This document shows positions 1-27,257 of a stretch of 64,000 nucleotides of DNA, one piece after another. Position 1 is the stretch's first letter; the number at the start of each line of letters is the position of its first letter. Origin of the DNA: Escherichia coli (lineage in GTDB: Bacteria > Pseudomonadota > Gammaproteobacteria > Enterobacterales > Enterobacteriaceae); NCBI RefSeq assembly GCF_001677475.2, contig NZ_CP015229.1. One strand, given 5' to 3'. Under the pieces are notes generated by a model. The model ran no database searches. It was not told where the DNA came from and saw nothing but the letters and a program-made list of their open reading frames with translations. The translations under genes were made by a program, and so were the position numbers.

Positions 1-409
1 CGCAGGCACCTTTTCGATCACCTGCATTAATTCGTTTATAAAACGTCGACGGGAAACACTTACCGGGGCCAATGTTATACGGACAGAATGACGCGATCCC
101 CGCTTTCTGGGGTTCGGTCAGCGGCACTTTGATGTTTTTCTCCACCCATGCCAGCGCCTTATCCCGTTCGATAGCGTTAACCCGGTCGCATTTTTCTTTC
201 GACAGCTTCATGCCAGGAATCACAGGCTTACCATCCACCCGGGTGGCTCCACGGCAGATGGTCCAGATCCCCGCACCATCACGGTATGCCGTGGTGTGGT
301 TACCTTCCTTTTCATCCAGAAACTGATCCAGGATTTCAGGCGCAGAAGCACCTGCGGCAATCAGCGCCAGAACGGCAGCCGATAAACCATAGCGGAGTTT
401 CCTGCTCAT
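1..409 (-). CDS. SAR endolysin (phage 21 R-type lysozyme), C-terminus outside window
   Basis: Minus-strand translation from ATG at 407-409 gives MSRKLRYGLSAAVLALIAAGASAPEILDQF...TAYRDGAGIWTICRGAT; no stop before window edge; directly downstream of pinholin. Confidence 0.75.
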   Translation of the reverse strand, partial: MSRKLRYGLSAAVLALIAAGASAPEILDQFLDEKEGNHTTAYRDGAGIWTICRGATRVDGKPVIPGMKLSKEKCDRVNAIERDKALAWVEKNIKVPLTEPQKAGIASFCPYNIGPGKCFPSTFYKRINAGDRKGAC

Positions 410-705: not shown

Positions 706-978
706 TTACAGCATCATGACCGATTCGGGTTGAGGTTCAGTCGCATCGGCGACCGGTGATTCAGGCTGAACTTCACCGCTCTCTGCGGTGGTATCTCCCG
801 CTTCAGTCGGTGGCTCTGCCTGTACACCAAGCAGCTCATCCAGAATGGCATCAACTTCTGCATCAAGACGCGCTTCCAGGTTATGGCGAAGTTTCTGTTT
901 CAGTGCGCTCAGGACTTCTTCAGAGCGCAGGACGTCCTTCACTGCCTCAGCAGTGACCAGGGATGTAATTTCTGACAT
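706..978 (-). CDS. Hypothetical acidic phage protein (~90 aa)
   Basis: ORF in late operon between esterase and holin; start taken at internal Met (MSEITSLV...). Confidence 0.35.
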
Positions 979-1003: not shown

Positions 1004-1186
1004 TTAAGGAGTAATGGGCTCTTCGGGTTTGCTTCCGGCTGACTGACTGGCGCTGATTTTCTCAGCGGCCCTTTTATCAATCTGCCTGCGCCAGAAGTCA
1101 CGCATGGCCCTGTACCCACCCGAAAGGAGATACAGCACACAGACCACCGTACAGAAGTACAGCATCAGCTGATGAATAAATGTCAT
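1004..1186 (-). CDS. Hypothetical small membrane protein (60 aa)
   Basis: ORF with one hydrophobic segment followed by charged tail; late operon position. Confidence 0.3.
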   Translation of the reverse strand: MTFIHQLMLYFCTVVCVLYLLSGGYRAMRDFWRRQIDKRAAEKISASQSAGSKPEEPITP

Positions 1187-1322: not shown

Positions 1323-3263
1323 TCATGCCGCGGCATCCGCGTTGTTCACTTCCACCGCAATGCTGTCAATCAGCACCGGGTAAGTCGCATTCCTGGTAAT
1401 GTCTGTCACATGCATCTTATCCGCCGCAAAGGCACTGACCGGTGACTGCGTCAGCGTGAACGGTGTACCATCCTGACCATCAATAACCGGCGTTACCTGA
1501 AGGCTGTTATTCCCGGCAAAGCGGAAAGCCAGCGTATGCCATTCATTATCAAATGCGCCAAGGGTTCCCAGTTTCTGGTTATTTGTCGCCACTTTCGCAT
1601 TGTGGTACATCACATTCAGGTCTTTTGCGTCTGTCTGGATGTAAAACGATGCCAGCAGATTATTCCCTGCATCCCCTGTCAGGGTGACACCCTGTGGCAG
1701 AGAGGAAACCGGCCAGTAAAGCGCCATGACATACTGGTTTGCCACCAGTTCACCGGATGCCTTAAAGCGGCAACTGATTAAACCTCCATTTTTCAGCAGT
1801 TCAGCGCCAGTACCGGCATCATGCTCCAGATGCCATGACCCTTTACCTGTCTCCTTGCTCAGCTTCATCGCGGTTCCACCTGTTGCACCCTCATCAGCAA
1901 CAATTTCCGCTTTACCTCCGCCAGCACTCCAGCCCTGTTCGGTCAGCTTCCCTTCAGACTCACTGGCCCGGTAAGACAGCAGTGTTGTGGTGCTTACCGC
2001 TTCACTTTCTGACGGTGACGGCGTCGGTGCGCCAGTTTCAGAAGATGGAACATCGACTTTTACTGTGGTTCTCCCGGCATGAACCAGAATCGCCGTTGCC
2101 AGACGGTCGGAAATAATCCCACGGCGTGCCCAGGAGCTGAAATGGCTCGCCCTGTCCTGTGACGTCCAGGTGGCTGAGCTGTCACGCCATTTCGAACCGT
2201 AATAACCGATACCCGGAATGTCCGGGTCTTCTTCCGGTTTGTTCGTCGGCACATTCACCCCGTTCTCATCGGTCATGAACGGTACGAAATGGATATTCTT
2301 TTCCGTTTTGTTTTTATAGCTGCCGTACACCATCTGGTAGGTGGATTCGTTCTTCTGCTTCCAGAAATACGTCGTGTCCCCACATATCCAGGGAACACCG
2401 CCAGCAGAGCCACCGACGCACTGGCCAGCCATATCCGCCAGGTCTGCACGGAATTTATCAACCAGCGCACCAAACTGTGCTGCGTGATTTGCCGGCGTAC
2501 CGCCAAAATCAAATTCCCCCTGCATCCACACCACGGCAAACAGCACATTTTTCGGGTTCTTCTTCAGTGCTGCTTTTGTTCGACCTATAAGGTCCTTATA
2601 CAGGGGCTTGTCCACCCCCCAGCGCACTGAATTCTCCGAGGCACCGGTCGCGTCACTGTATGTGCCATCAGCTCCGGTGGTGAACGCTGAACCACCACGA
2701 CAGCACGGAACCAGCAGAATACCCGCATTCGCCGGTATAAACGGCAGCAGTTTTTTGGCGATATGCAGCCCCTGCCCCACGGTTCCGTACTGCCCCTTTG
2801 ACAGGTCCGCTTTCGGATGGTTAAGACGGCTCATGTCCTGCACATCATGCAGACAATGGTCCGCCGGAATGATGTCGTTATATTTACAGGCGACACCGCC
2901 CGGTGTCACCGTACTGCGACGCGCCAGCTGCTTAATACGCGGCTCCGGACGGTCATATGTCTCCGGTAGCGGAAGACCTTCACCGTATGACATACCATTG
3001 GACTGACCGGCAAGCGCAATCACATAGTAATATTCTGGCGCAACAGAAGGATTCGTTGAGGTCGTCGGACGGTTGCCTGGCTCCTCAGGTGATGAGATGC
3101 TTCCCTCGCTCACAACTGGCTGGATGAATTCCGCACCATAACCAGCTGTCGAAATCAGCGCACTACCATAAGGCTGCCACCCTTCCTTCAGTTTTTGAGT
3201 TATTCGTTCCGCAAGATCGGACGGCGATACCGCCCTGACCACGTCATAGTGTTTAAATGCCAT
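1323..3263 (-). CDS. nanS-p: Prophage sialate O-acetylesterase-like protein (NanS-p family)
   Basis: 646-aa ORF starting MAFKHYDVVRAVSPSDLAERITQKLKEGWQPYG (DUF1737-like N-terminus) followed by esterase-like core; located between tRNAs and lysis genes as in Stx-type prophages. Confidence 0.7.
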   Translation of the reverse strand: MAFKHYDVVRAVSPSDLAERITQKLKEGWQPYGSALISTAGYGAEFIQPVVSEGSISSPEEPGNRPTTSTNPSVAPEYYYVIALAGQSNGMSYGEGLPLPETYDRPEPRIKQLARRSTVTPGGVACKYNDIIPADHCLHDVQDMSRLNHPKADLSKGQYGTVGQGLHIAKKLLPFIPANAGILLVPCCRGGSAFTTGADGTYSDATGASENSVRWGVDKPLYKDLIGRTKAALKKNPKNVLFAVVWMQGEFDFGGTPANHAAQFGALVDKFRADLADMAGQCVGGSAGGVPWICGDTTYFWKQKNESTYQMVYGSYKNKTEKNIHFVPFMTDENGVNVPTNKPEEDPDIPGIGYYGSKWRDSSATWTSQDRASHFSSWARRGIISDRLATAILVHAGRTTVKVDVPSSETGAPTPSPSESEAVSTTTLLSYRASESEGKLTEQGWSAGGGKAEIVADEGATGGTAMKLSKETGKGSWHLEHDAGTGAELLKNGGLISCRFKASGELVANQYVMALYWPVSSLPQGVTLTGDAGNNLLASFYIQTDAKDLNVMYHNAKVATNNQKLGTLGAFDNEWHTLAFRFAGNNSLQVTPVIDGQDGTPFTLTQSPVSAFAADKMHVTDITRNATYPVLIDSIAVEVNNADAAA

Positions 3264-3480
3264 GAATCCTCCCGGCCGGGATAATGTACTGAATAAGATA
3301 AGGAGTGAGCGGAAGTCCCGAAACACAAGGGAAAAAGACAACCACCCGCAAAAAAGAAATACACTCCTCACAGTTGCGCAGGGTGATTACTGTAAGGTAT
3401 TATTCGCAGCGTTAATTAATTGTTCATATTGCTTTTCTTCTTGCCAACCGCTCTTCCCGGGGGCGGCTTTTTTTGCATGT

Positions 3481-3504
3481 AAAAGGCCCCTGCTATGAGG
3501 GGCC
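3481..3504 (-). terminator. Putative intrinsic terminator upstream of esterase gene
   Basis: Minus-strand hairpin GGCCCCT-catagc-AGGGGCC followed by TTTT. Confidence 0.4.
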
Positions 3505-3752
3505 CTAGTATATGCCTAATCTCTGTATACTGCATGGTGCCGGGTGCCTCCCGGTGAGTTCGGCCTGGTGCCACCAAACCCGCGTATTCTCGCTTACGAT
3601 CATCAAAGAGATCATACCATTCACCAGTCGCCCCTCCGCACAGGGGGATTCACCATGCCAGTTTCTTTTAACAAACTCCCCGCAAATCAGACAACTGTCA
3701 ACTGTCTGAATTGTGAGACATTTAAAATTTTCGGGGCATGACTGATACCCGG

Positions 3753-3917
3753 CTAACTACCTGGCATGCCCTTTTTCACCAAAGGGAAAAGCACCACCAC
3801 AATACCAACCACCAGCACTCCATCCGCCAGCACCGACATGACCCTGCTGGTGAAATCCACCATCACCACCAGAAACAGCAGGAGTGCCACAGCAGCCAGA
3901 CGCAGTTTTAATGTCAC
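3753..3917 (-). CDS. Small hydrophobic protein (~54 aa), start overlapping upstream stop
   Basis: GTG start overlaps the TGA of the TerB-like gene; product VTLKLRLAAVALLLFLVVMVDF...GIVVVLFPLVKKG is strongly hydrophobic; not in ORF track (short). Confidence 0.3.
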   Translation of the reverse strand: MTLKLRLAAVALLLFLVVMVDFTSRVMSVLADGVLVVGIVVVLFPLVKKGMPGS

Positions 3918-4345
3918 AGGTGGTTCTCCAGTCGCAGGCCAAGAACACCGGCGATCTCTTCCAGAACCTTACGCTCTTCCGGCTCAATTTCACCATCCGC
4001 TTCAGCAATGGCCACCGCCACATCCAGCACATCTTCCGCTTCATGCGTATCGTGTTTTACATCTTCAATTTCACGCAACGCCGCTCGACGACCAATTTTA
4101 AAGTTGGTGTCAAGCTGACCTGTGATCGTGGCACTGATGGCATTAATTTCTGACGTAAACGCGGACAACGCAGGCTGGTTACGTAATACCTGTTCGATCT
4201 TCGCTTTCTCTGAAGCCTCACATTCACCATCTGCATAGGCCACCAGATAGGCAGCATTAATAACCGCCTGTGCCAGATCACGTTTCTCAAACTTTTTAAT
4301 TTCCGCTGCCGCTCTGCGGGTTTTCTTTTTGAAAATACCAAACAT
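3914..4345 (-). CDS. TerB-family (tellurite-resistance TerB-like) protein
   Basis: 143-aa ORF with paired ADGE(C/I)E-type motifs (AYADGECEASEKAKIE; AEADGEIEPEERKVLEEIAG) typical of TerB domain. Confidence 0.6.
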   Translation of the reverse strand: MFGIFKKKTRRAAAEIKKFEKRDLAQAVINAAYLVAYADGECEASEKAKIEQVLRNQPALSAFTSEINAISATITGQLDTNFKIGRRAALREIEDVKHDTHEAEDVLDVAVAIAEADGEIEPEERKVLEEIAGVLGLRLENHL

Positions 4346-4514
4346 CGTGACGTTCCTTTAGGTGGGTGAGCCAACGCCCGGGAGCGATCTGCCCACAGAG
4401 AAAGTCACACTGACCACTCCGTAAGCTCACCCCCGAAAGGCTCTGTGGTTGATATGCGCCGGGCGTGGCGCGGAGACAAAAAAGGCCCGCAAAAGCGAGC
4501 CTGGTAAATAAATA

Positions 4515-4591
4515 TGGCGCGTTGTACTAGATTCGAACCAGTGACCGATTGCTTAGAAGGCAATTGCTCTGTCCGGCTGAGCTAACAACGC
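4515..4591 (-). tRNA. argO: tRNA-Arg (anticodon UCU)
   Basis: 77-nt cloverleaf on minus strand: acceptor GCGTTGT/ACAACGC, anticodon loop CU-UCU-AA, TTCGAAT T-loop, encoded CCA. Confidence 0.8.
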
Positions 4592-4604
4592 AGTGTACAG
4601 ATAA

Positions 4605-4681
4605 TGGACCGCCATCGAGGACTCGAACCCCGCGCAACCAGCTTCGAAGGCTGGCGCTCTATCCCGATGAGCTAATGGCGG
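4605..4681 (-). tRNA. argN: tRNA-Arg (anticodon UCG)
   Basis: 77-nt cloverleaf on minus strand: anticodon stem CCAGC/GCTGG, loop CU-UCG-AA, TTCGAGT T-loop, encoded CCA; acceptor stem begins with C (unusual). Confidence 0.7.
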
Positions 4682-4688
4682 TAGGTGA

Positions 4689-4764
4689 TGGTGGCCCTTG
4701 CTGGATTTGAACCAGCGACCTGGCGATTATGAGTCGCTCGCTCTCACCACTGAGCTAAAGGGCC
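4689..4764 (-). tRNA. ileZ: tRNA-Ile2 type (anticodon CAU)
   Basis: 76-nt cloverleaf GGCCCTTTAGCTCAGTGG...anticodon loop CU-CAU-AA...GGGCCACCA; CAU anticodon could also be Met, Ile2 inferred from Stx-phage ileZ-argN-argO arrangement. Confidence 0.7.
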
Positions 4765-5134
4765 GGGCGCAGGATAATAACGGCACGTAACTAATTCTGC
4801 AATATCATCCGTTCTGACTGACTAAATTCTGAACTTCCCTGACCGTCTGCTCAAAACGCCCGCTCTCCAGCTCAACGCCAATTGCACGACGCCCCAGCGA
4901 CATTGCTGCTTTGACGCTACGGACATAAAAAAGCCAGCCACTGGGGGAGGCTGGCAAACTCGTAGAGCAAAATGCTGTTACGCAAACTTCGTTACAGGGT
5001 TATCCTGCAATACTTAAAATATACAATATTTAGAAAACTAATAGCACCATATGCGATTTTTAAGATTTTATTATTAATTGCGGTCGCACCTTCCTTTCTG
5101 TGTACTTTCCGTATAACTAACAGGATTCCGGATA

Positions 5135-5160
5135 CAAAAAACCCGCGCATCGGCGGGTTA
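5135..5160 (-). terminator. Intrinsic terminator between AT-rich island and tRNAs (possible tR')
   Basis: Minus-strand hairpin AACCCGC-cgatgc-GCGGGTT followed by TTTTTT. Confidence 0.5.
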
Positions 5161-5271: not shown

Positions 5272-5586
5272 TCACACCACCTCTGGTGGGGATTTTCGAG
5301 CTCTTTTTTTACCACATAGCAATGTATTCAGTCGGCGTTGTTTGGGGCTTCTGCATAAACGACACCAGCTTTGCGGCCTTTTCTTATTCCAACAAATTCT
5401 GAATTCTAATTTTTTCTCAATTTCCTCATCAGAGACAGCTATTTTGCCGCAGAGAGGGCAAGTGTGCTTTTTATCATACTCGGTTTTCAGCACCTCAATT
5501 AACTTACGAATTAATGGCTTGATGTCATAAACGTTCCGCAAATCATAATCATGACCGATTTGAGCATAACTTATCTTCTGCAACAT
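5272..5586 (-). CDS. Hypothetical Cys-rich (zinc-ribbon-like) protein
   Basis: 104-aa ORF with CPLCGK...CWNK...CRLCRS; GGAGG 9 nt upstream of ATG; AT-rich; overlaps upstream gene by 16 nt. Confidence 0.45.
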   Translation of the reverse strand: MLQKISYAQIGHDYDLRNVYDIKPLIRKLIEVLKTEYDKKHTCPLCGKIAVSDEEIEKKLEFRICWNKKRPQSWCRLCRSPKQRRLNTLLCGKKRARKSPPEVV

Positions 5587-5864
5587 CCCTTTTCCTCCAG
5601 GCGTTGAAAGCCTTCTTCTATAATGGCACGAGATGCACGCATTCTGGTGGCAAAAAGAGATATTGACGGTAATGTTTGTGAATCTACATCTTGATGAAAT
5701 GAAACAAAATTAGCCAGCAGAGCTAATTCTGAATGGTTTATTTTTAACCTGTGCTGGTATTTCAAAAGCTCTCTGAGAATAACGAACCAGTCAATGTTTA
5801 AAATATCATCACTCCACAGAGACAAATCGTTTTTCTCTGCTTCCGGGAAATCCTCGATGTCCAT
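5571..5864 (-). CDS. Hypothetical winged-helix-like DNA-binding protein
   Basis: ~97-aa ORF; segment LPSISLFATRMRASRAIIEEGFQRLEEKG resembles winged-helix recognition region of replisome-organizer N-terminal domains; AGGGG upstream of second ATG. Confidence 0.4.
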   Translation of the reverse strand: MDIEDFPEAEKNDLSLWSDDILNIDWFVILRELLKYQHRLKINHSELALLANFVSFHQDVDSQTLPSISLFATRMRASRAIIEEGFQRLEEKGCCRR

Positions 5865-5994
5865 TTTACCCCTGTTCATTGTTGTATCTCTGCGGTTAAA
5901 CGGTAGATAACTCTTACGTCCTTGTCCTATAAAGTAAATAGCATAACGTTCACAAATTTACATACTTCACATAGTGAACGACAAGCGCCTGCTA

Positions 5995-6375
5995 TCACAG
6001 GCGCTGCACATATCGGTCCATTTTCAGTCTGACACCAAGTAACATTAACATCCCTTCAACCACGCCCTCCGCTTTCTGTAATTTTTTACCAATAGTTCCA
6101 TCAGAGCATCCATGCTTACGTGCCAGCGCCATGAACGTCTCCCCCAACACGTAATAATCAACCAGCAAGTCATGCAGATCACTGTTGTTCCTGTTAAGGC
6201 GAGCCATACACCCGCATATAATCATCGCGTCATCGTCACAACACTGTGGACGTGATTTTACTTTTTCGGGGATCAGTCCCTTAAATCCGGCAGCAATGGG
6301 CGACCATGTAACATCCTCATGGTTATTTGCCGCCCATGCCCCCCAGCGCTCAAGAACCTGCCGGATATCACGCAT
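5995..6375 (-). CDS. Late-gene antiterminator Q (QuuD / phage-21 Q family)
   Basis: [24 protein letters not shown]...[19 protein letters not shown] closely resembles recalled QuuD. Confidence 0.8.
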
Positions 6376-9353: not shown

Positions 9354-9986
9354 TCAGAATTCAAATTGTCTTGCCCGTAGTTGCGCCAGCATGCTTCTGG
9401 CCCTATGCACCATATAGTTGGCGGGATCAAGTTTTGCTGCTTCGCGGAGCAATGTGTCGCGAGTCCGGTTGGTTATATGACGAGTCTCGTAGGCCAGATC
9501 AAACAGTTTCCCGTAGTAATCAGAGTTCAGTTCTCTCATGACGGGGTATAGCTGTTTACTGAGTTGTTGTGCTTTTTCCATCCAGAGTTGAACGTAGCAG
9601 AGCAGGATGATGTCTTCTGCTGTGAATTGCGGCTGAATATGAGGTTGTGGCGGTATAGCGCTTTTTTCAGCTTCACGGTCCAGAATATCCAATACCCAGC
9701 GACGAAACTCTTTTGCTATTGGAGTTCGAGCAAACATCGCTATTAGGTGAGCGCCGCGTAATGAGAAGATGCGAGTCTCTTGCTTGTCCCCTTTAGGATC
9801 GGTCAATTTGACCGAGGCTGTCATACCGTTTGTGAATTCATCTGCGTGACGGGCATAGATGCGTGTTACCGAGCTTTGATCTGCATATTGTAACGCGCTG
9901 GCTATTTGGGGGGCAGACAACCACAGTAGACCATCTCGTTGAACGGTCTGGAATTGAACATTGTGGAATACAAGTTGAGTGCTCAT
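9354..9986 (-). CDS. Antirepressor-like protein, Bro-N-type N-terminal domain
   Basis: 210-aa ORF; C-terminal ~100 aa homologous to the adjacent paralog (QPQFTAEDIILLCYVQLWMEKAQ...LRARQFEF). Confidence 0.55.
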   Translation of the reverse strand: MSTQLVFHNVQFQTVQRDGLLWLSAPQIASALQYADQSSVTRIYARHADEFTNGMTASVKLTDPKGDKQETRIFSLRGAHLIAMFARTPIAKEFRRWVLDILDREAEKSAIPPQPHIQPQFTAEDIILLCYVQLWMEKAQQLSKQLYPVMRELNSDYYGKLFDLAYETRHITNRTRDTLLREAAKLDPANYMVHRARSMLAQLRARQFEF

Positions 9987-10240
9987 AGTTTTATGTCCTT
10001 TCGATTCGTTCAGATCACCCCGTGTTCAGCAGGGCGGTCGGGTACTTGAACACCGTCGAAAGTTCGGCCCGCATCCTTAGCCTTGCGGCTGTTTTTCGGT
10101 ATACGCGCTACCCGACCATATCTGAAAAATGGACATAAAAAATCCGCATGACTGACGGGCGCGGTTTCCGCTTTCGAAGGTGTGTTCAGCACCATGGAGC
10201 GGAATATATCCCCGCTAATGCGGATTTGTCAAATCTGGCC

Positions 10241-10906
10241 TTAAAACTCGAATTGTCTTGCCCGCAGGCTTTTCAGCATTGGTCTGGCCCGCTGGATAAC
10301 GAAACTTGACTGGTCAAGCCGTGCCGCCTCCCGCAGTAGCGCGTCTCTGTTCTTCGTCACCATGTAGATGGTTTCAAACGCAATGTCATACAGCTTGTTC
10401 GTGTATGAGGAGTTCAGCTCTTTCATAATGGGATACAGGTGTTTGCTGATGTTCTGGGCTTTTTCCATCCAGAGCTGCATGTAGCAAAGGAGGATGATTT
10501 CCTCGGCTGTGAATTGTGGCTGAATCTGCGACTGCTGTTCGGTTTGTATTGTTTTTCCCAGGCTGAAATAGCAGTCTTCCAGTTTTTCGAATACTTCCCA
10601 CGCTCGATCGGTTTCGAGCATTTTTGCATGACGGGCTGCGCCGCGTTCTGTCCAGAGGATGAGGTGCTTTGTACGCGGTGCAACTAAGTTACTTTGAGTA
10701 ACCTTGTTCTTAAATTCCCGCAATTCAGCCCCTTCCAATTTGAAGTAGTGCTTCCCGCAAACAAAACGCTCGGCATTGCGCGTATAGTTCACTTTGATGT
10801 TATTAGTTTCGGTGCCATAAAGTTGTGCCAAAAGCTCGGTGGTAATAACAAGAATCTGGTTATGGGTAATCGGGGAGATGGTTTCAACAGAGATTTGAGT
10901 TGTCAT
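10241..10906 (-). CDS. Antirepressor-like protein, ORF6N-type N-terminal domain
   Basis: N-terminus LAQLYGTETNNIKVNYTRNAERF...KHLILWTERGAARHAKML resembles ORF6N; C-terminus shared with 9354-9986 gene. Confidence 0.55.
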   Translation of the reverse strand: MTTQISVETISPITHNQILVITTELLAQLYGTETNNIKVNYTRNAERFVCGKHYFKLEGAELREFKNKVTQSNLVAPRTKHLILWTERGAARHAKMLETDRAWEVFEKLEDCYFSLGKTIQTEQQSQIQPQFTAEEIILLCYMQLWMEKAQNISKHLYPIMKELNSSYTNKLYDIAFETIYMVTKNRDALLREAARLDQSSFVIQRARPMLKSLRARQFEF

Positions 10907-11064
10907 AATGACGCCCTCTAGTGGTTTCTAAACTATCACCACCGTAAGGTTCCAATCATCGGGTGGTGAGACGCACAGGGTTGGAACTACCGGGAAACCG
11001 ACCGGCGAGCTTTTCAGCTCCCCCATGCGCCCCACCATAATTCAGATGTGCGCGTGCATACGAC

Positions 11065-11089
11065 AATAAAAAACACGCTCGCGGCGTGT
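11065..11089 (-). terminator. Intrinsic terminator upstream of antirepressor gene
   Basis: Minus-strand hairpin ACACGC-cgcga-GCGTGT followed by TTTTTATT. Confidence 0.4.
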
Positions 11090-11173
11090 GTTTGTCGCGG
11101 TCTCTATCCGGGGTTCCAATCCCGACGGCCAACTCGACCGTGCGAAGAATATAATCCCGGATAAGTAATTACG

Positions 11174-13801: not shown

Positions 13802-14572
13802 TCACTTTTCCGATGCAACACGGCGGGAAGAATCAGCAATCTGTCGAACAATATCCCGGTGCTTGTTCAGCTCCCGCAGCGCGGCGCAGACACGCTCCCA
13901 CTTCTGGACATGATTTTTCGCCCGACGCAGTTCGCGGTTTGCCATATGCAGCGATGGTAAAACCAGGTCATCCGCTCGCGTTTCAGTAAACGATGGCAAC
14001 GACTGCACAATGTCCGCCACAGTTTCTGTTTTAATATCTTCCTGTGTTGCAGCTTCCTGTACCGGTAACGCAACACCTGCTGGCTGAGGAAAGGCTTTAC
14101 CATCGGTTTCTGCTACCGATGCAGCTTTCGGCTCTGCTGGTAAATTATCTCCAGGCATGCAGTAGCGAAATTTACCGTTCTGATTTACGCGTGCCAGGCG
14201 TCCCGTTGCGGTTACCACCGCCAGCGTGGAAGCAACCTTGCGAGTGCTGACACCGAACTTACCCGCCAGTTCCTCACATGTTTTAGCCCCCTCCTGAGAG
14301 ATAAACTCAATCATCATGTCAGCGCTAACTTTTGGAGCGACCTCTTCGGTTACCACATCCGGCGCTTCAGGTTGTAGTGCCTGCCCTTCGGTTACCCCGG
14401 ATTCACCTTCGACAGCCAGAAACCAGGTGTGACCCGTTTTATCAACAACGCCATTTTTTTTGAGTTCCCACAGTTCGTTGAGAACTTCTTCACGGCTGAT
14501 ATCAAGCCGCGCCGCCAGTTCAACAGAATTGGCTTTTCCCATCGCTTTCAGTGCATGCAGTACGGTTTCCAT
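13802..14572 (-). CDS. Hypothetical phage protein with winged-helix-like segments (256 aa)
   Basis: ORF directly downstream of DnaC-like gene. Confidence 0.5.
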
Positions 14573-14597
14573 CGAAAATTTACCTCGTCAAAAATTC

Positions 14598-15338
14598 TCA
14601 CATACCCTGACGCCCAACGTTTGATCGCCAGCTCTCCCAGTTAAAACTCACCCAACGACCACCGTTCATGGTCATACGGTCCATCACCCGCTCGCCGAGG
14701 AGTGTGCTCATCGCTGCGTGATTCAGGTTCGTCAGGATTCCGACAGTGCGCAGTGATGCCGTTCTGCGGTCGACGATCTGGTTCAGTATGACCTGCTCGT
14801 TGCGCGTATCCCGCTGCATGCCAATTTCATCCAGGACCAGAAGGTCGACCCCGCAAAGTTCCTGTAAAAATTTCTCACCGGACTTGCCGTTGTCATAGCC
14901 GTCATGCAACACGCTCATGACATCGGACACGGTGACGATAATCACGCTTCTCCCCTTCGCCATCAGCCGGTTGCCAATCGCTGCTGCCAGGTGATTTTTA
15001 CCGGTACCAGGTTTACCGCTGAACACGAAGTTTGTACACCCGGTCATCAATTCATCGGCAATGGATTTCGCCTGGCTCAGAGCATGGCGCTGACCGTCGT
15101 TCTGCACCCGGTAGTTCTCGAATGAGCACTTCCTGTGAAGCGGCTGGATGCCCGCACGGTTCAGGATTTTTTCAACCCGCGCCTGATGATTCTGGCGGTT
15201 AATTTCCTCGCTGCGCTTACGGCCCTCAGCCAGTTGCCATTCCCGCCATTCGTCGGTCGTCCGGAACGGTGCTGCCACGTGCGGTGGTGCCAGACGGCGC
15301 ACCCGTTCAAGAATCCCTCCTGTCGAAATGTTTTTCAT
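14598..15338 (-). CDS. DnaC-like replicative helicase loader (AAA+ ATPase)
   Basis: Walker A FSGKPGTGKNHLAAAIG and Walker B DLLVLDEIG in DnaC/IstB-like context. Confidence 0.8.
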   Translation of the reverse strand: MKNISTGGILERVRRLAPPHVAAPFRTTDEWREWQLAEGRKRSEEINRQNHQARVEKILNRAGIQPLHRKCSFENYRVQNDGQRHALSQAKSIADELMTGCTNFVFSGKPGTGKNHLAAAIGNRLMAKGRSVIIVTVSDVMSVLHDGYDNGKSGEKFLQELCGVDLLVLDEIGMQRDTRNEQVILNQIVDRRTASLRTVGILTNLNHAAMSTLLGERVMDRMTMNGGRWVSFNWESWRSNVGRQGM

Positions 15339-15344
15339 GGCTGA

Positions 15345-16427
15345 TTACCCCCTGAACCCCGGCGGAATTTCGGTGTCCGGTTCAGAAATGTGGTTCACGC
15401 AACGCTGGCTGACTGCGCCAGCCTTCGGCAGCGACCACGGATTTTCGAAATTCCTGTTCGGGCCAAAAAACGTCGATGCCTGCTGAACAAATTCAGTTCC
15501 CGCTTTCCCGGTAGCCTCCAGGTATCTTGCGTAACGCCTCACGCCATCCAGCACGACATCCGGTGACACCCCTTCGCGTAATCTGGCCCTCCAGGCATTG
15601 AACGCGGATTTCTTCGGGTTTGACCCTGCCCGATGCGGATATTCACGCCAGACCCGTTCGAACACGTCAGGATAATCAACTCGTCCCGCAGACGGTCCCG
15701 GCATCGCCCGGGTTAACCCAATCGGCTTCCCGCTCATCGCGGAATCGGCTTCAGGCTGCTGCGGTTGGTGTTGTTGCTCCGGTTCGACGAGCAGCACCTG
15801 CTGCACACAACGCCCGGAATCTGCTTCCGGTGTCATGCCAGCTGGTCCTGGACGTTCAGTCAGAACGGGACAAGAATCCACCAGTGGGTCCGTGGCGATT
15901 TTTTCGCCATGGACCAGAAGGGTTTTATCTCTTTCCTGTTCCTGTTCCTGTTCCTGTTCTTGGCTTGAAAGGGGCTCTGAAGGGGCTTCAATTTTCCGAC
16001 ATGATTCACGTCTGACATCCAGGTGGAAATCATCCTTATATCTATCATAAAAGGATGATAAAAAAGGATTTTCCAGCAACGCGGAATATTCATTTCTTAC
16101 CCCAGCACAACGGTTATCGCCTGGTTTCAGCGCTTCACCAACCTGCCATGCTGCCATTTCATGCACCCATACAACCTCAGAATCATGGTCATAGCTGCAA
16201 AAACCAGCCTCGCAAGCCATTTGAAGCCCCTTAGAAGCCCCTTCAGGATCAAGTCCGGTTTCGTGAGCAATGTACAAAACAGGCAGGTAATAAAGGCCCA
16301 GCATATTGGAATGAGGCGAGGTCATCATATACAACGCCACTACCATACATTCCGGACCAGACTTCCTTAGTTTTCGCCCTGTATCGCCTAACCAGAACTG
16401 AGGTGAAATTGTTGCGTAATTACGCAT
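15345..16427 (-). CDS. Replication initiator (lambda O-like replisome organizer)
   Basis: 360-aa ORF between cII and DnaC-like gene; internal repeats and an AT-rich tract inside the coding region resemble an O-gene-embedded origin. Confidence 0.55.
   Translation of the reverse strand: MRNYATISPQFWLGDTGRKLRKSGPECMVVALYMMTSPHSNMLGLYYLPVLYIAHETGLDPEGASKGLQMACEAGFCSYDHDSEVVWVHEMAAWQVGEALKPGDNRCAGVRNEYSALLENPFLSSFYDRYKDDFHLDVRRESCRKIEAPSEPLSSQEQEQEQEQERDKTLLVHGEKIATDPLVDSCPVLTERPGPAGMTPEADSGRCVQQVLLVEPEQQHQPQQPEADSAMSGKPIGLTRAMPGPSAGRVDYPDVFERVWREYPHRAGSNPKKSAFNAWRARLREGVSPDVVLDGVRRYARYLEATGKAGTEFVQQASTFFGPNRNFENPWSLPKAGAVSQRCVNHISEPDTEIPPGFRG
15935..15958. repeat. Hexanucleotide tandem repeat (CCTGTT)x4 inside replication gene
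   Basis: Perfect four-unit repeat; encodes (EQ)n on minus strand. Confidence 0.9.
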
Positions 16428-16460
16428 AGTCCCCTCGCATACAAGATTTACTCCATACCG

Positions 16461-16610
16461 CAGACGGTCCCGGTATCTCCCGGGTTAACCCAATCGGCTT
16501 CAGGCTGCTGCGGTTGGTGTGACTGCACATTGGTGTGACTGCACATCTTCACAGACGGTCCCGGTATCTCCGGGTTAACCCAATCGGCTTCAGGCTGCTG
16601 CGGTTGGTGT
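16461..16610. repeat. Two direct copies of a ~60-bp repeat, third copy at 15689-15775 inside the replication gene; includes tandem 15-bp repeat
   Basis: cagacggtcccggtatctc(c)cgggttaacccaatcggcttcaggctgctgcggttggtgt at 16461-16520 and 16552-16610; ggtgtgactgcacat duplicated at 16516-16545. Confidence 0.85.
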
Positions 16611-16680
16611 TGTTGCTGGCGAAATTCTTCCAGATGTGGCAGAATTATTACCGTGTATTGCTCCATGCCCTGCCTGAATA

Positions 16681-16977
16681 TCAGATATTCATCAGGATTT
16701 GCTCAGAACGTCCGGCCCCAACCGGACGTTTTTTATTTGCATGAACGTTAATGGCATGCTGGAAAGCCCGGCTGATCGGACTGATATCAGATGCCATCTG
16801 GAACGCGCATAAAATCGCCGCGATGTATCGCCAGTCGGTACGACTGACCTTCGATTCATGGCAGCCAATCATCTTCGCCAGTCCCCTTTGCGTCAGAGCT
16901 GACAGGTTGATAAGTAAATCCGTTTCAGCGCGATCGATATCGCGCTGCGACAGTTTGCTGTAACTTGTTTGTGACAT
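16681..16977 (-). CDS. cII: CII-like transcriptional activator
   Basis: C-terminus KKRPVGAGRSEQILMNI matches lambda CII C-terminus (KKRPAATERSEQIQMEF); position between cro and replication gene. Confidence 0.75.
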   Translation of the reverse strand: MSQTSYSKLSQRDIDRAETDLLINLSALTQRGLAKMIGCHESKVSRTDWRYIAAILCAFQMASDISPISRAFQHAINVHANKKRPVGAGRSEQILMNI

Positions 16978-17120
16978 TTCTTATGATTCCAAATAGTGAA
17001 TAGTTAGTTGAAAGGTATGCGTGGAAACGCATATGGCCTTAATTGGTCAGATATCTTGGGCCTCGCTTTTCAGCGACGTAGGACGAATGTCCATTGTGAA
17101 AAGAGCAGTGTTAATTGAGC

Positions 17121-17360
17121 TTATCGTTGACGATCAGGATTCGCTACATTGCGTAACCATTCGGCGGTAAATTTGCCATCAGATGCATTGGCGAGAATTT
17201 CCGAATAGTTGGTTTTCATCGTGTATTCGGTGCGAGGTAACGCTCCGTTTTTAACCCACTTATGAATTGCAACATTTGACAACCCGCATAAACGGGCAGC
17301 GACTGTTTGACCACCAACAGCTTTTACTGCGAATTGTATCGGATTCATACTGCTATCCAT
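17121..17360 (-). CDS. Cro-like HTH repressor
   Basis: 79-aa ORF with HTH-like QTVAARLCGLSNVAIHKWVK; divergent from cI. Confidence 0.6.
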   Translation of the reverse strand: MDSSMNPIQFAVKAVGGQTVAARLCGLSNVAIHKWVKNGALPRTEYTMKTNYSEILANASDGKFTAEWLRNVANPDRQR

Positions 17361-17440
17361 TAATTTAGTTAACTTCGAGTTAATGTTAACTATTAGCTGA
17401 CAGTTATGTCAACTATGTTTGATAATTAACGTATGGTTAA
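17361..17440. promoter_or_regulatory. Divergent cro/cI promoter-operator region (OR)
   Basis: Two perfect TTAAC-N5-GTTAA palindromes (17369-17383, 17426-17440); rc TTGACA at 17407-17412 for cro; CTGACA-18bp-GATAAT ending 7 nt before cI ATG. Confidence 0.5.
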
Positions 17441-18203
17441 AAAAGATGAACTAAAAGAAGCGTTCTCAAAGAGACTACTACAGGCATTATTAGATGCAGG
17501 TGTGGGCGGACGCGGTCAGGCTAAGCGGATTCAGAATGCAATGAAACTGCGAGGCATTGATATCTCTGAACCGGGGATCTGGAAATGGCTTAATTCTGCA
17601 TCAATTCCAGAAAAAACAAGTATTTTGGCACTTAGTGACTGGCTTTCCGTGAGGCCGGAGTGGTTGGAGTATGGCAGTAACGAGCCATCCGTAAAACAGC
17701 GACCTTCAATTCCAAACGAATCAGAATGGGGTTCCCTTGAAACTTGGGACAGAAATACACCACTACGAGATGATGAAGTTGAGGTGCCATATCTGAAAGA
17801 CATTGAGTTTGCATGCGGTGACGGAAGAGTTCATTGCGAAGATCATAATGGTTTTAAATTACGCTTCTCAAAAGCAACCCTGCGCCGTGTCGGAGCTAAC
17901 AGTGATGGTTCTGGTGTGCTTTGTTTTCCGGCTACTGGTGATAGCATGGAGCCCGTGATACCAGATGGAACAACAATCGCAGTAGACACAAACAACAAAC
18001 GTATTGTTGACGGCAAACTCTACGCCATCGCACAGCCTGGTGTCGGTGATGAAAAACTGAAGCGTATAAAACTATTGTACAGACGCCCCGGTGGAAAACT
18101 AATCATACGCAGTTATAACAGTGAAGAGTACCCTGACGAAGAAGCAGATACTCAAAGCGTGGAGATTATCGGAAAAGTTTTCTGGTATTCAGTTCTGCTT
18201 TAG
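17433..18203 (+). CDS. cI: CI-type prophage repressor (HTH N-terminus, S24 LexA-like C-terminus)
   Basis: 256-aa ORF with GDSMEP active-site motif and K-containing LexA-like C-terminal domain. Confidence 0.85.
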   Translation: MVKKDELKEAFSKRLLQALLDAGVGGRGQAKRIQNAMKLRGIDISEPGIWKWLNSASIPEKTSILALSDWLSVRPEWLEYGSNEPSVKQRPSIPNESEWGSLETWDRNTPLRDDEVEVPYLKDIEFACGDGRVHCEDHNGFKLRFSKATLRRVGANSDGSGVLCFPATGDSMEPVIPDGTTIAVDTNNKRIVDGKLYAIAQPGVGDEKLKRIKLLYRRPGGKLIIRSYNSEEYPDEEADTQSVEIIGKVFWYSVLL

Positions 18204-18213
18204 CCCCTCTCCC

Positions 18214-18237
18214 CCCGGCCTCAGAGCCGGGTTTTTT
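18214..18237 (+). terminator. Intrinsic terminator after cI
   Basis: Hairpin CCCGGC-ctcaga-GCCGGG followed by TTTTTT. Confidence 0.55.
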
Positions 18238-18366
18238 ATTAACCCAGCTAGCCAAAACTCATCTATCCTAGCTTCTATACCCCTTCATACTTGATAACCG
18301 TCGCTCACCGAACAAGCAATAATAATTAACTAAAAATCAAAAACATAGAATTTCCCCACAATAATT

Positions 18367-18409
18367 TTAACTTTTGGTTATTGACTAATGCTAACCAACA
18401 GTTAATAAT
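18367..18409 (+). promoter_or_regulatory. Candidate pL with operator half-sites (OL)
   Basis: TTGACT(18381-18386)-17bp-AATAAT(18404-18409); operator-like TTAAC-N5-GTTAT (18367-18381) and TAAC-N5-GTTA (18392-18404). Confidence 0.4.
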
Positions 18410-18445
18410 CATTTCACCAACAGGTCACCGATAACAACGCGGCCC

Positions 18446-18473
18446 CAATTGGAAAGCTCTTTAAACAACGTCG
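18446..18473 (+). promoter_or_regulatory. Candidate nutL (boxA + boxB hairpin)
   Basis: GCTCTTTAA (boxA-like) followed 5 nt later by GTCGA-acac-TCGAC hairpin, between putative pL and N-like gene. Confidence 0.35.
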
Positions 18474-18599
18474 AACACTCGACTACGTGGCTGCAAAGCC
18501 AGATCGCCCAACCGCATAAGCTGTCGGGTGCAATGCCGAAGCAATCATCTCAGGGGAGGCTTCGAGATTGCATCGCCAAAGTTTATTCGGGAGAAATCT

Positions 18600-18872
18600 A
18601 TGTCCAGAAAAACAGAATTTAAAGGCACCGCAGCTTCCCGCCGCAGAGCACGCAGGGCCGAGCTTCAGGGTCTGGAGGCATCAAGCGCTGATAAACTGCA
18701 CCGCCCCACACCTTCACGGGTGTACTTACAGTGCAAACGCAAAGCCGCAATGCGAGCTGAAGTAGTCACGATAACGACATTAACCAGAAAATATGAAGGC
18801 TCTACTTGTCTTCCAAACACTGCACTTTACGCAGCTGGCTATCGCAAATCAGGAACAATAACAGCGAGGTGA
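18600..18872 (+). CDS. N-like antiterminator with arginine-rich motif
   Basis: 90-aa ORF; N-terminal TAASRRRARRAELQGLE resembles lambda N ARM (QTRRRERRAEKQAQW); first gene right of cI. Confidence 0.55.
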   Translation: MSRKTEFKGTAASRRRARRAELQGLEASSADKLHRPTPSRVYLQCKRKAAMRAEVVTITTLTRKYEGSTCLPNTALYAAGYRKSGTITAR

Positions 18873-18875
18873 TTG

Positions 18876-19589
18876 ATGACCACGCCTTCAGTTTTGCCGC
18901 AAAAATTATGGCGTCCGCTTGCAGAGATTAAAAACTTCGTTGAAAAAATGCCTGATGGTGTTCGCCTTACGGAGGTTACAAAAAAAGTTAAGACGTTTGC
19001 CGAACTGTCAGGAAAAGAGAGAAACCAGCTCATCGATTTTATCGATAAACGGGAAAGCATCATTGTATTTAAGGTCAGAAAAGAAGGTTCTGGTAACGGA
19101 GTAACCTTTTTCCGCCACAAAAAATATGGATATCCCAAACGGGAAGGAAACGTCACAATCATTAAGGACCTTCAATCAAAATTATGTACCAAATGCGGGC
19201 AGACAAAATCAGTCAATGATTTTTATTCAGATGCCAGCAAGCGTGACGGGAGAGCCATTTATTGCAAGAAGTGCGAATCTGCAATGAAACGCTCACGCAG
19301 AGAATGCAACAAATTAATTCTGCAACAACAGGAACCTGAAATGAATAACCTCAAAGCAGTATCACCTTCACCAGAAACACTCAGAAAACAGGCTGAAGAA
19401 TTGCTGAAAGCCGCCGAAATTGCGGAGAAAAAACGCCAGGAAGATGATGTATTCAACAAAAAACTTGCGCCCTTAAAACTTGAAATTCTTCAGGCCGCCG
19501 GAAAAATGCAGCTTAAACTGGACGAATTCATCGACTGTATGGATGAAATGAATAAAGCAGTTCAGAAGCTTAAAGAGCTGACCGCCTGA
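18876..19589 (+). CDS. Hypothetical protein with Cys4 zinc-ribbon and C-terminal coiled coil (237 aa)
   Basis: CTKCGQ...CKKCES; GAGGTG upstream of ATG; follows N stop directly. Confidence 0.5.
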   Translation: MTTPSVLPQKLWRPLAEIKNFVEKMPDGVRLTEVTKKVKTFAELSGKERNQLIDFIDKRESIIVFKVRKEGSGNGVTFFRHKKYGYPKREGNVTIIKDLQSKLCTKCGQTKSVNDFYSDASKRDGRAIYCKKCESAMKRSRRECNKLILQQQEPEMNNLKAVSPSPETLRKQAEELLKAAEIAEKKRQEDDVFNKKLAPLKLEILQAAGKMQLKLDEFIDCMDEMNKAVQKLKELTA

Positions 19590-19620
19590 TATTAATAAAT
19601 TGCAACTACCGGAGTTAACT

Positions 19621-19977
19621 ATGAACGAAACAGAACTGAAGCACATTATCGCCCTGCTTCTGGAAGATGCCAGACAGGTTTATCGACTTAGCCCAAACTC
19701 CGCAACGCAGGAACGCATCCGGATGGCAGAAAAAGCGCTGAAACAGGAGAGTGAAAATAACATATCCGAAGTTAGCGCGAATGGTGAAAATGAAGCAATA
19801 GAAATAAACAGCAATATCAGCGACGGCGTAATAGCTTCATCCCACAAGACAATTCTCATGGGCGCACGACTTCTGGAGGTGATTACGAGTGAGCTTGAAA
19901 AGAACGGCATCAAGCCCACCCCTTGTTATTTAGAGTGTGTGTTAAATGTTATTGCTTACTCGATGTTCCGTCGGTGA
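19621..19977 (+). CDS. Hypothetical protein (~118 aa)
   Basis: ORF; start taken at MNETELKH. Confidence 0.45.
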   Translation: MNETELKHIIALLLEDARQVYRLSPNSATQERIRMAEKALKQESENNISEVSANGENEAIEINSNISDGVIASSHKTILMGARLLEVITSELEKNGIKPTPCYLECVLNVIAYSMFRR

Positions 19978-20090
19978 CAGATGAAAGTTTTCGATCAAGG
20001 AATGTTTCAAGTGCATCGTAAATAATGGAAATCGCCCCAGACGCCTGAGTAACACCCCCGCAGCAACATCCATGTATCAATATCCTCTTT

Positions 20091-20132
20091 GGCGGACATC
20101 GGTTTGCCGATTACTGATGTCCGCCCTTTTTT
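20091..20132 (+). terminator. Intrinsic terminator inside accessory block
   Basis: Hairpin GGCGGACATC-15nt-GATGTCCGCC followed by CTTTTTT. Confidence 0.5.
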
Positions 20133-20290
20133 AAAGTGAATTTTATGATGCGGTGAATGCGGCTATGCGCACGCGGAACAGTTAAACCGACAGGATGTCA
20201 CGGAAAATCATCATCCCCTGCTCCGGCGTTAATTGTTAACTGGTTAACGTCACCTGGAGGCACCAGGCACCGCATCAACAAAGTTCATTT

Positions 20291-20530
20291 GTGAAAATGG
20301 AGATAATTATGATTGCTCATCACTTCGGAACTGATGAAATACCACGTCAGTGCGTGACACCTGGCGATTATGTTCTTCATGAAGGCCGCACATATATCGC
20401 TTCAGCAAACAATATTGAAAAGAGAAAGCTCTATATTCGTAGCCTGACTACAAAAACATGCATTACCAACTGCATGATTAAAGTATTCATCGGGCGCGAT
20501 GGCTTACCCGTAAAAGCAGAGTCGTTGTGA
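20291..20530 (+). CDS. Hypothetical protein (79 aa)
   Basis: ORF downstream of internal terminator; start uncertain. Confidence 0.35.
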
Positions 20531-20615
20531 CGAGCAATTAAAATACACCTTCCATATCTGTAACAGACAAGCCGAAATAAAAACCGCATTAATTATCAAT
20601 CACGGAAAAATCAAA

Positions 20616-21002
20616 ATGAAAGAACTTGCGCAAAATGAAATATTTTCCGAAACCAGTCCTGATGCAATAAATGAACTCAAAGAAATTGCAGAACGCATCA
20701 GTAAAATATGCAAAGAATACCAAATCGACTTTGTATTTTCTTTTTCAGTACTTACAGAGGTTGGAAATAACGAATATAAGGACAGTCGTTTTGTTTTATG
20801 TGGGTTAAATGGCAAAACACCAAGCCCATATATTCATGCTGCACGTGAAGTCGTCAGAAGCAACATTGGAGCACAACAAATCCATACACTGGCGCAGGCT
20901 CTTGAGTTTGCAAGAGAAAATTCTGAGTGCGACTGCCCTGAATGCCAGCACGAAAAGGAAAAAACAACTCACAAAACAGCAAACCAGGCAACCTTCCACT
21001 GA
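20616..21002 (+). CDS. Hypothetical protein with C-terminal Cys cluster (128 aa)
   Basis: ORF ending SECDCPECQHEKE. Confidence 0.45.
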   Translation: MKELAQNEIFSETSPDAINELKEIAERISKICKEYQIDFVFSFSVLTEVGNNEYKDSRFVLCGLNGKTPSPYIHAAREVVRSNIGAQQIHTLAQALEFARENSECDCPECQHEKEKTTHKTANQATFH

Positions 21003-21109
21003 AATAAAAATCCGGCAGCGCAGGCTACCGGATTTCTCCCTGCGTCACCGTATTCGGAGAAATCAGACAAAGGGCCGCTAATTCTAATCCAGCCAGAGGT
21101 TTAAATACA

Positions 21110-23179: not shown

Positions 23180-23472
23180 ATGCCTGGCTTATCCCCGATC
23201 GCATTGAAGAGCAGTCATGGGCACGACACTACCGGCAAATTGCCCGTGAGGAAAACGAGACTGAACTGGCGGACGACCTGGAAAAAGGTCTGCCCCAGCA
23301 CCTGTTTGAATCGCTGTGCATCGATAATCTGCAACGTCATGGAGCCAGCAAAAAAGCCATTGCCCGTGCATTTGATGACGATGTCGATTTTCAGGAACGC
23401 ATGGCAGAACACATCCGGTACATGGTTGAAACCATTGCCCGCCACCAGATTTATATTGATTCAGAGGTATAA
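23176..23472 (+). CDS. gam: Gam (RecBCD inhibitor)
   Basis: 98-aa product near-identical to recalled lambda Gam C-terminal 98 aa (EAQSWARHY...[12 protein letters not shown]...MVETIA). Confidence 0.9.
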
Positions 23473-23477
23473 ACCAG

Positions 23478-24263
23478 ATGAGTACAGCTCTCGCAACGCT
23501 GGCAGGGAAGCTGGCTGAACGTGTCGGCATGGATTCTGTCGACCCACAGGAACTGATCACCACTCTTCGCCAGACTGCATTTAAAGGTGATGCCAGCGAT
23601 GCGCAGTTCATCGCATTGCTGATCGTTGCCAACCAGTACGGCCTTAATCCATGGACGAAAGAAATTTACGCCTTCCCTGATAAGCAGAACGGCATCGTTC
23701 CGGTGGTGGGCGTTGATGGCTGGTCCCGCATTATCAACGAAAACCAGCAGTTTGATGGCATGGACTTTGAGCAGGACGATGAATCCTGTACATGTCGGAT
23801 TTACCGCAAAGACCGTAATCATCCGATCTGTGTTACCGAATGGATGGATGAATGCCGCCGCGCACCATTCAAAACCCGCGAAGGCAGAGAAATCACGGGG
23901 CCCTGGCAGTCGCATCCCAAACGGATGTTACGGCATAAAGCCATGATTCAGTGTGCCCGTCTGGCCTTCGGATTTGCTGGTATCTATGACAAGGATGAAG
24001 CCGAACGCATTGTCGAAAATACCGCATATACTACAGAACGTCAGCCGGAACGCGACATCACCCCGGTTAACGAAGAGACCATGTCGGAAATTAACGCCCT
24101 TCTTACTTCCATGGAAAAAACGTGGGATGACGACCTCTTGCCGCTCTGTTCCCAGATATTTCGCCGCTACATTCGAGCGTCGTCAGAACTGTCCCAGGCC
24201 GAAGCAGAGAAGGTTCTTGGATTCCTGAAACAGAAAGCCACGGAGCAGAAGGTGGCAGCATGA
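23478..24263 (+). CDS. bet: Bet (Red-beta single-strand annealing protein)
   Basis: 261-aa product near-identical to recalled lambda Bet ([72 protein letters not shown]...). Confidence 0.92.
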
Positions 24264-27256: not shown

Positions 27257-27257
27257 A

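Follow-up and report, generated by a model that had tools for sequence, protein, structure and literature searches.

The stretch analyzed here, a 64,000-nt window of the Escherichia coli contig NZ_CP015229.1, carries the late-gene leader of a lambdoid prophage of the Shiga toxin (Stx) phage type, in which a two-gene cassette, tciA-tciB (tciAB), is found in place of the toxin genes stxAB. As stx is absent, the locus is Stx-phage-like and the prophage is no Stx phage. All genes of the locus lie on the minus strand and run toward window position 1 in the following order: the antiterminator gene Q, a split open reading frame (ORF), the late promoter pR' with its terminator tR', a methyltransferase remnant, three tRNAs, a terminator hairpin, tciA, tciB, the small RNA (sRNA) STnc100, a NanS-p-type esterase gene, genes of the DUF1378 and DUF826 types, a holin gene and the gene of a signal-anchor-release (SAR) endolysin (Table 1). 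The cargo slot is the interval from the post-tRNA terminator to STnc100. An initial annotation of this DNA had read the succession of Q, ileZ-argN-argO-type tRNAs, cargo, NanS-p-like esterase and 21-type lysis genes as mirroring the stx locus, and alignment with Stx1 and Stx2 phages upholds this order, with every feature on the minus strand where it had been placed. Taking the evidence as a whole, we lean slightly toward a reading in which this Stx-type late locus carries tciAB as cargo, expresses it in a Q-dependent manner during lytic growth, and makes TciB a tether for TciA in a lytic role at the membrane.

The exchange of cargo can be delimited exactly by comparison with the Stx2a phage Lyz12581Vzw, which has a 933W-type stx2 locus. 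Both share, in the same order, Q, pR'/tR', the methylase remnant, the tRNAs with their terminator, STnc100, the NanS-p esterase, DUF1378, DUF826, the S21-type holin and the endolysin. Identity reaches 90% over window positions 6514-6002 (ninH and Q), 95% over the tRNA-bearing segment 5229-4467 (pR' to the tRNA terminator) and 89% over 3720-1 (sRNA to endolysin). Between the latter two segments, window positions 4466-3721 (746 bp, with tciAB) stand in place of 1324 bp with stx2AB in Lyz12581Vzw. Besides lacking stx2AB, the window differs from this phage by an extra 770 bp with the split ORF between Q and pR'. A tblastn search of the whole 64 kb with the A and B subunits of Stx1 and Stx2 gave no match (best E-value 0.16), in line with the initial annotation, which had looked for toxin ORFs and seen none.

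A similar exchange emerged from the comparison with Stx1 phages of Shigella. The prophage is integrated in ynfG, with the integrase gene at 25501-26664 (+) and host genes from about 26700. The region from integrase to replication genes (approximately 14200-26700) is the part that is near-identical to phages POCJ13 and 75/02, with 98% identity over 12.5 kb. The similarity continues at 92.5% from the nin genes, Q, orf197 and pR' through the methylase remnant, and at 88% from the esterase to the lysis genes. In contrast to the window with its three tRNAs and tciAB, POCJ13 has stx1AB in the slot and no tRNAs. When positions 24000-34000, which include the host flank, were used as a query, the best identity among complete E. 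coli genomes was 98.8%. On these alignments, the prophage is a toxin-less sibling of the known Shigella Stx1 phage lineage, with a clean one-slot cargo exchange. The Stx1 and Stx2 comparisons together bear out the earlier proposal that the TerB pair sits in the stx slot.

The cassette itself has a close relative in Escherichia phage JLK-2012, a prophage of E. coli O55:H7 DEC5E, in which the genes are annotated as tciA and tciB. Window positions 4521-3628, comprising the cassette and its flanks, are 88.5% identical to it at the DNA level; the 4-nt overlap between the genes is the same and TciA shows 96% amino acid identity. In JLK-2012, as in the window, Q and three tRNAs precede tciAB, and a DUF1737/SASA esterase and lysis genes follow it. 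The two differ in Q, in the esterase subtype (70% nucleotide identity), in the lambda-type S/R/Rz lysis genes of JLK-2012 and in its tRNAs, which are annotated as Asn, Thr and Gly (two of them called by ARAGORN). The hairpin after the tRNAs, common to the Stx2a phage and JLK-2012, forms the left edge of the exchangeable slot. Because homology to both phages breaks off at this terminator and at the sRNA, we infer that these two conserved elements may have served as recombination anchors for cargo exchange.

STnc100 lies between tciB and the esterase gene, 65 nt past the tciB stop, and had been overlooked by the initial annotation within its own coordinates. It matches Rfam RF02076 with 181.9 bits (gathering score 47) over model positions 1-206 of 206. 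In Stx2 phages, STnc100 is located about 75 nt after stx2B and pairing with stxB was proposed (PMC12370729). Since the sRNA is present here without stx, it is part of the conserved frame of the locus rather than of the toxin cargo, and pairing with stxB cannot be its sole role. A 2026 preprint relates STnc100 to PasD and lists TerB among the genes conserved beside the prophage sRNAs PasA and PasC (10.64898/2026.05.13.724894). Just past STnc100, a terminator-like hairpin followed by a T-run is found on the plus strand (3448-3466, +) and is possibly bidirectional.

The assignment of TciA to the TerB family, already made in the initial annotation, is supported by three profile or structure libraries. 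The protein matches Pfam TerB (PF05099; i-Evalue 1.1e-12, 48.6 bits) over residues 26-138, with a second stretch at 11-53; phrog_632 ('tellurite resistance'; E 3.3e-69) with residues 1-143 on profile positions 1-143 of 143; and the solved TerB structure 2JXU_A (E 1e-7) with residues 14-137 on chain residues 20-144. An AlphaFold2 model built from 16 phage homologs is all-helical with seven helices (predicted local distance difference test 87.7, predicted template modeling score 0.81). Its best Foldseek matches in PDB are 2H5N (probability 1.00, template modeling score 0.53-0.62), which we take to be a TerB-like structure, and 2OU3 (probability 0.69), entitled 'tellurite resistance protein COG3793'. 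As these matches are weak (E-values of at least 0.01) and the NMR structure of TerB, 2JXU, was not among the Foldseek matches, the TerB assignment rests on the sequence-level matches. In NCBIfam, TciA reached only 28.7 bits against the TerB-like part of DjlA, below the cut-off of 162, and the other nine proteins gave no matches. TciA carries a duplicated acidic motif, (A)DGxxxxxE, as ADGECEASE (residues 38-46) and ADGEIEPEE (116-124). Across the 16 phage homologs E46 and E124 are invariant and D39, G40, D117 and G118 are at least 90% conserved, so that key TerB residues are kept even though overall identity among the phage homologs is only 27-46%. This pattern is consistent with retention of a putative TerB-type cation binding.

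The second gene, tciB, begins with a GTG codon that overlaps the TGA stop of tciA as GTGA (4 nt). Its product matches Pfam DUF3927 (E 2e-15) and phrog_1470 ('TciB-like'; E 6e-24), and hydropathy analysis reveals two hydrophobic segments with a short polar loop between them; both termini are basic. The hydrophobic peptide of about 54 residues with a GTG start overlapping the TerB stop, as initially described, was thereby recovered, and the 54-aa ORF is a real gene. A third small membrane ORF resembling the tciC gene of phage P1 was not found, there being only 65 nt between the tciB stop (3753) and STnc100 (3687). tciC is specific to P1 and is no defining trait of the wider tciAB family.

The identity of the TerB and membrane-peptide pair, as first proposed, therefore stands, whereas its status as a fresh candidate does not, because the pair is already named. 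It is known as phrog_632 with phrog_1470 and as Pfam TerB with DUF3927, and the RefSeq labels given by the Prokaryotic Genome Annotation Pipeline (PGAP) read 'tellurite resistance TerB family protein' and 'DUF3927 family protein'. The arrangement is a common, already annotated variant of lambdoid prophages of the enterohemorrhagic E. coli (EHEC) type. At a coverage threshold of 80% of the cassette query, tciAB is present in 802 of 5,426 complete E. coli genomes (15%), among them O157:H7, and the median copy number is four. A 1.1-kb query running from the end of the tRNAs to a point upstream of the esterase gene is covered to at least 80% in 105 genomes. An O157:H7 prophage shows the order antiterminator, tRNA-Ile, tRNA-Arg, TerB, DUF3927, esterase, holin and lysozyme. 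Relatives are encoded by at least 591 stretches in IMG/VR; among the best 80 loci tciB follows tciA in 78, and most have the same tRNAs upstream. One of them (L010, IMGVR_UViG_2721755653_000006) is 100% identical in every segment compared.

Relatives of the pair extend well beyond lambdoid phages. A DUF3927-type ORF lies directly 3' of the TerB gene, usually overlapping it, in 9 of 15 phage lineages, and other types of small hydrophobic ORF take this position in three more (12/15 with some such ORF). The arrangement of TerB with a coupled DUF3927 gene was found in JLK-2012, P1, Caitlin, Pollock, Klebsiella phage 5, pJN2-26, Fostie and LIET2. The Pseudomonas phages AF and Zuri share an alternative partner, an ORF that has one helix and carries the motif Y-G-[YW]-Q-T-E-R-E-T (L007 1926-2150 and L094 1943-2146). 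In Vibrio phage BUCT194, a second TerB gene stands beside a gene for a TerC-like multi-span membrane protein (L008 1-1395). Small tciB genes are easily overlooked in annotation: the homolog in Klebsiella phage 5 LV-2017 (L009 3360-3575; E 1e-23 against a profile built in this analysis) follows the TerB gene directly and is unannotated in GenBank. In 5 of the 15 lineages, tRNAs of varied identity precede tciA at a distance of no more than about 800 bp, and in four of these of no more than about 400 bp. The five are P1 (L004), the Erwinia jumbo phage Caitlin (L005), JLK-2012 (L003), Klebsiella phage 5 (L009) and the window itself (4515-4764). We did not adopt the notion that tciAB travels with tRNA genes, given that only these five lineages show it and that the tRNA identities differ; the proximity may reflect only a shared cargo hot spot.

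Two settings invite closer comparison. Phage P1 encodes a TerB-family TciA (42% identity) followed by a DUF3927 TciB, with flanking tRNAs that include Ile2 (CAT). Its pair is expressed only after loss of repressor, as the one described here would be, and likewise has a function assigned by homology only. P1 differs in the extra tciC and in the use of an early, C1-controlled ban operon, with no Q-dependent late operon. TerB of the terZABCDEF operon, a system for resistance to tellurite and colicins and for phage inhibition, shares with TciA its Pfam family, the similarity over residues 14-137, a helical fold, the duplicated acidic motifs and a membrane-protein partner. In contrast to that system, the cassette is phage-borne, sits in lytic-phase transcription units and pairs TerB with a 54-aa partner instead of the multi-span TerC. 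It is not accompanied by other ter genes either: terZ, terA, terC, terD, terE and terF were absent among the ORFs from Q to the holin gene, all of which were assigned to other families.

Expression of stx2 depends on Q-modified transcription from pR'. For tciAB, a simple consensus scan, which may miss weak promoters or those of other sigma factors, detected no sigma-70-like promoter in the interval that separates tciA from the tRNA terminator (4482 to 4346, minus strand). Our best inference is that tciAB would be expressed with the late operon. Probably lacking a promoter of its own, the tciA-tciB pair would be transcribed in lytic growth when Q lets polymerase from pR' pass tR' and the post-tRNA terminator, as for stx2. 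Of the earlier description of the pair as a moron expressed with the late operon, the second part stands as this best inference and the first, in the strict sense of a unit with its own promoter and terminator, does not.

These features also bear on whether tciAB is a lysogenic-conversion cargo that, from the prophage state, provides resistance to tellurite, pore-forming colicins or phages in the manner of plasmid- or island-borne ter operons. TerB family membership hints in this direction, as do the PHROG category of phrog_632 ('moron, auxiliary metabolic gene and host takeover'), the use of the same slot by other conversion genes such as stx, and the enrichment of the cassette in pathogenic E. 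coli, whose genomes contain several copies each. We nevertheless regard lysogenic conversion as unlikely. The remaining ter genes are missing alongside, the scan detected no promoter of the cassette's own and two terminators lie upstream. In addition, the P1 pair is part of a C1-repressed operon, and virulent phages, for which there is no lysogen to convert, carry homologs as well.

The genomic context of the relatives points to a lytic-phase role. Fostie, Klebsiella phage 5 and the O157:H7 prophage are other lambdoid phages in which Q precedes tciAB and the lysis genes follow it. In P1, tciA-tciB-tciC belongs to the C1-repressed ban operon amid tRNA genes. TerB homologs of Pollock, Zuri, BUCT194 and jumbo Erwinia phages are embedded among genes for DNA replication and nucleotide metabolism. 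We take these phages (Pollock, Zuri and BUCT194 being N4-like Schitoviridae) to be virulent. The C1-repressed operon of P1 and the homologs in virulent phages are the reasons why a role in the lytic phase is favored here.

In the mechanism we envisage for such a lytic role, tciA and tciB would be translationally coupled through the GTGA overlap. TciB would form a two-helix membrane hairpin with both basic ends in the cytoplasm and would keep TciA, a soluble and acidic TerB-fold protein that probably binds cations, at the inner membrane. Such a tether would have parallels in the pairing of TerB and TerC and in DjlA, whose TerB-like domain is membrane-anchored, and is supported by the membrane ORF after the TerB gene in 12 of 15 lineages and by the TerB/TerC-like pair of BUCT194. 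In the weakest step, the complex may aid lytic development by stabilizing or sensing the state of the inner membrane, through homeostasis of ions or proton-motive force, exclusion of superinfecting phages, or protection from pore-formers. TciAB would not be expected to give the lysogen classical tellurite resistance. A more far-reaching version, which we put forward only tentatively, is that tciAB is no relic of tellurite resistance and is a widespread two-part module, a TerB sensor with a mini membrane anchor, that temperate and virulent phages of many families switch on lytically to control the state of the host inner membrane; in EHEC prophages it would compete with stxAB for the Q-driven slot, with the terminator and STnc100 as anchors.

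Several observations weigh against this interpretation of tciAB as a lytically expressed, membrane-tethered pair. The tci names come from P1, and the attached description, 'tellurite/colicin resistance/inhibition of cell division', is by homology only. In PMBT3, Cygsa01 and BUCT194, the TerB gene considered has no small membrane ORF directly after it. Promoters of the kinds that a simple consensus scan may miss would make expression in the lysogen possible. PADLOC returned a single weak match (PDC-S48, a TerB-containing candidate, E 0.002) and no defense-system assignment. Finally, tciA, tciB and tciC of P1 were dispensable for plaques in a CRISPR interference (CRISPRi) screen (PMC10695390), so any benefit of tciAB must be conditional. 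A full-text literature search for tciA/tciB, DUF3927 and phage TerB function recovered annotations and the one CRISPRi essentiality table, with no functional study.

Two further explanations draw on the same observations. According to the first, tciAB acts in counter-defense, as a phage TerB mimic or decoy that disrupts TerB-domain stress or defense systems of the host, or abortive-infection systems that depolarize the membrane. Its spread over unrelated temperate and virulent phages is typical of accessory anti-defense genes, the dispensability of the P1 tci genes in a laboratory host would fit, and the PDC-S48 match, although weak and sub-threshold, points the same way. Even so, this explanation seems quite unlikely, as conservation of the metal-binding-type residues points to an active TerB function more than to a decoy. 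P1, moreover, keeps the pair though grown on E. coli K-12, which is not known to have a ter operon. The second explanation, that the cassette is hitch-hiking DNA without current function and tciB a chance frame, could likewise invoke the non-essentiality of the tci genes in P1. We consider it highly improbable because 78 of the 80 best IMG/VR loci keep both ORFs intact and coupled, the cassette persists in 802 complete genomes, tciB matches both DUF3927 and a profile built from distant phages, and key TerB residues remain invariant at 27-46% overall identity.

Table 1. Features of the tciAB late locus, listed in the direction of transcription; positions are those of the 64,000-nt window.
Feature	Position	Strand	Evidence
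Late antiterminator Q, 933W/Stx2 type	5995..6375	-	phrog_79, E 1e-52
Split ORF of phrog_34160, between Q and pR'	5272..5879	-	overlapping ORFs 5879-5571 and 5586-5272
Late promoter pR' (TTTACG, 16 nt, TATCAT)	5217-5190	-	promoter scan
Terminator tR' (stem 5159-5140, T-run to 5134)	5134..5159	-	terminator scan
DNA methyltransferase C-terminal remnant, 50 aa	4805..4957	-	phrog_14488, E 2e-38
tRNA, anticodon CAT, ileZ (Ile2) type	4689..4764	-	ARAGORN; Rfam, 72.5 bits
tRNA-Arg (TCG), argN type	4605..4681	-	ARAGORN and Rfam
tRNA-Arg (TCT), argO type	4515..4591	-	ARAGORN and Rfam
Intrinsic-terminator-like hairpin after the tRNAs	4483..4502	-	terminator scan: 8 pairs, 6 of them G-C, T-run
tciA, TerB-family protein, 143 aa	3914..4345	-	Pfam TerB, phrog_632, PDB 2JXU
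tciB, DUF3927 membrane peptide, 54 aa	3753..3917	-	Pfam DUF3927, phrog_1470, hydropathy
STnc100/PasD-type prophage sRNA, full length, 213 nt	3475..3687	-	Rfam RF02076
NanS-p-type sialate O-acetylesterase (predicted), 646 aa	1323..3263	-	Pfam DUF1737, SASA and DUF6645 (C-terminal)
DUF1378-type small protein	1004..1186	-	phrog_494; homolog annotated DUF1378 in Stx phages
DUF826-type protein	706..978	-	phrog_311 on residues 55-144 of the long ORF; annotated DUF826 in Stx phages
Class II (S21-type) holin, 71 aa	414..629	-	phrog_9876, phrog_20; PGAP homolog 'class II holin'
SAR-type endolysin, N-terminal part, running off the window edge	1..409	-	annotated lysozyme in Stx phages

Upstream of the slot, Q shares 93% amino acid identity over 125 residues with Q of Lyz12581Vzw. 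The halves of the split ORF cover phrog_34160 positions 1-94 and 94-197, and comparison with gp33 of Shigella phage POCJ13, which is intact at 197 aa, traces the split to a 1-nt deletion near position 5590. The split ORF represents either a pseudogene or a sequencing error; the segment is identical in the IMG/VR locus L010. The pR'/tR' segment, whose two elements were named by homology and position, is near-identical to the sequence just 3' of Q in both Lyz12581Vzw and the Stx1 phage POCJ13. The methyltransferase remnant is likewise annotated in the Stx2a phage, and E. coli FHI_NMBU_10 has a full-length methylase at this position. Within the remnant, a hairpin with a 7-bp stem, a 9-nt loop and a T-run (4927-4955, -) was noticed by eye and was not called by the scan. 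All three tRNAs, as initially proposed, are called by both ARAGORN and Rfam. ARAGORN assigns the CAT tRNA to Met; its homologue is noted as tRNA-Ile2 in the Stx2a phage and as tRNA-Ile by PGAP in E. coli, and the set therefore fits ileZ-argN-argO.

Downstream of STnc100, the esterase is 89% identical in amino acid sequence to that of the Stx2a phage and matches the PDB structures of NanS (3PT5, E 1e-117) and of the NanS-p C-terminal domain (6YP6, E 9e-116). Its domain architecture predicts a NanS-p 9-O-acetyl-sialate esterase, in agreement with the initial call. A start at the listed GTG (3371) was rejected, as all homologs and phrog_143 begin at residue 37, corresponding to the ATG at 3263. 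The 21-type lysis genes were recognized as an S21-type holin and a SAR endolysin, the frame-2 translation of which begins MSRKLRYGLSAAVLALIAAGASAP... and contains the N-terminal signal-anchor-release sequence. Elsewhere in the window, Rfam identified sRNA-Xcc1 (10028-10117), C4 antisense RNA (10959-11042) and isrK (11068-11141) on the minus strand. These RNAs adjoin anti-repressor (Ant) genes (9354-9986 and 10241-10906), an arrangement that resembles the C4-controlled antirepressor module of the P1/P7 type.

In summary, the swap described here illustrates how toxin and non-toxin cargo exchange by recombination between the same flanks, and close kin of the Stx1 phages of Shigella and E. coli circulate without the toxin. 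tciAB is among the commonest late-operon cargoes of pathogenic E. coli, and the question of its function is common to hundreds of genomes. If the two-part module proposed above is real, it might, for example, block superinfection, defeat abortive-infection systems that depolarize the membrane, or prevent premature lysis.

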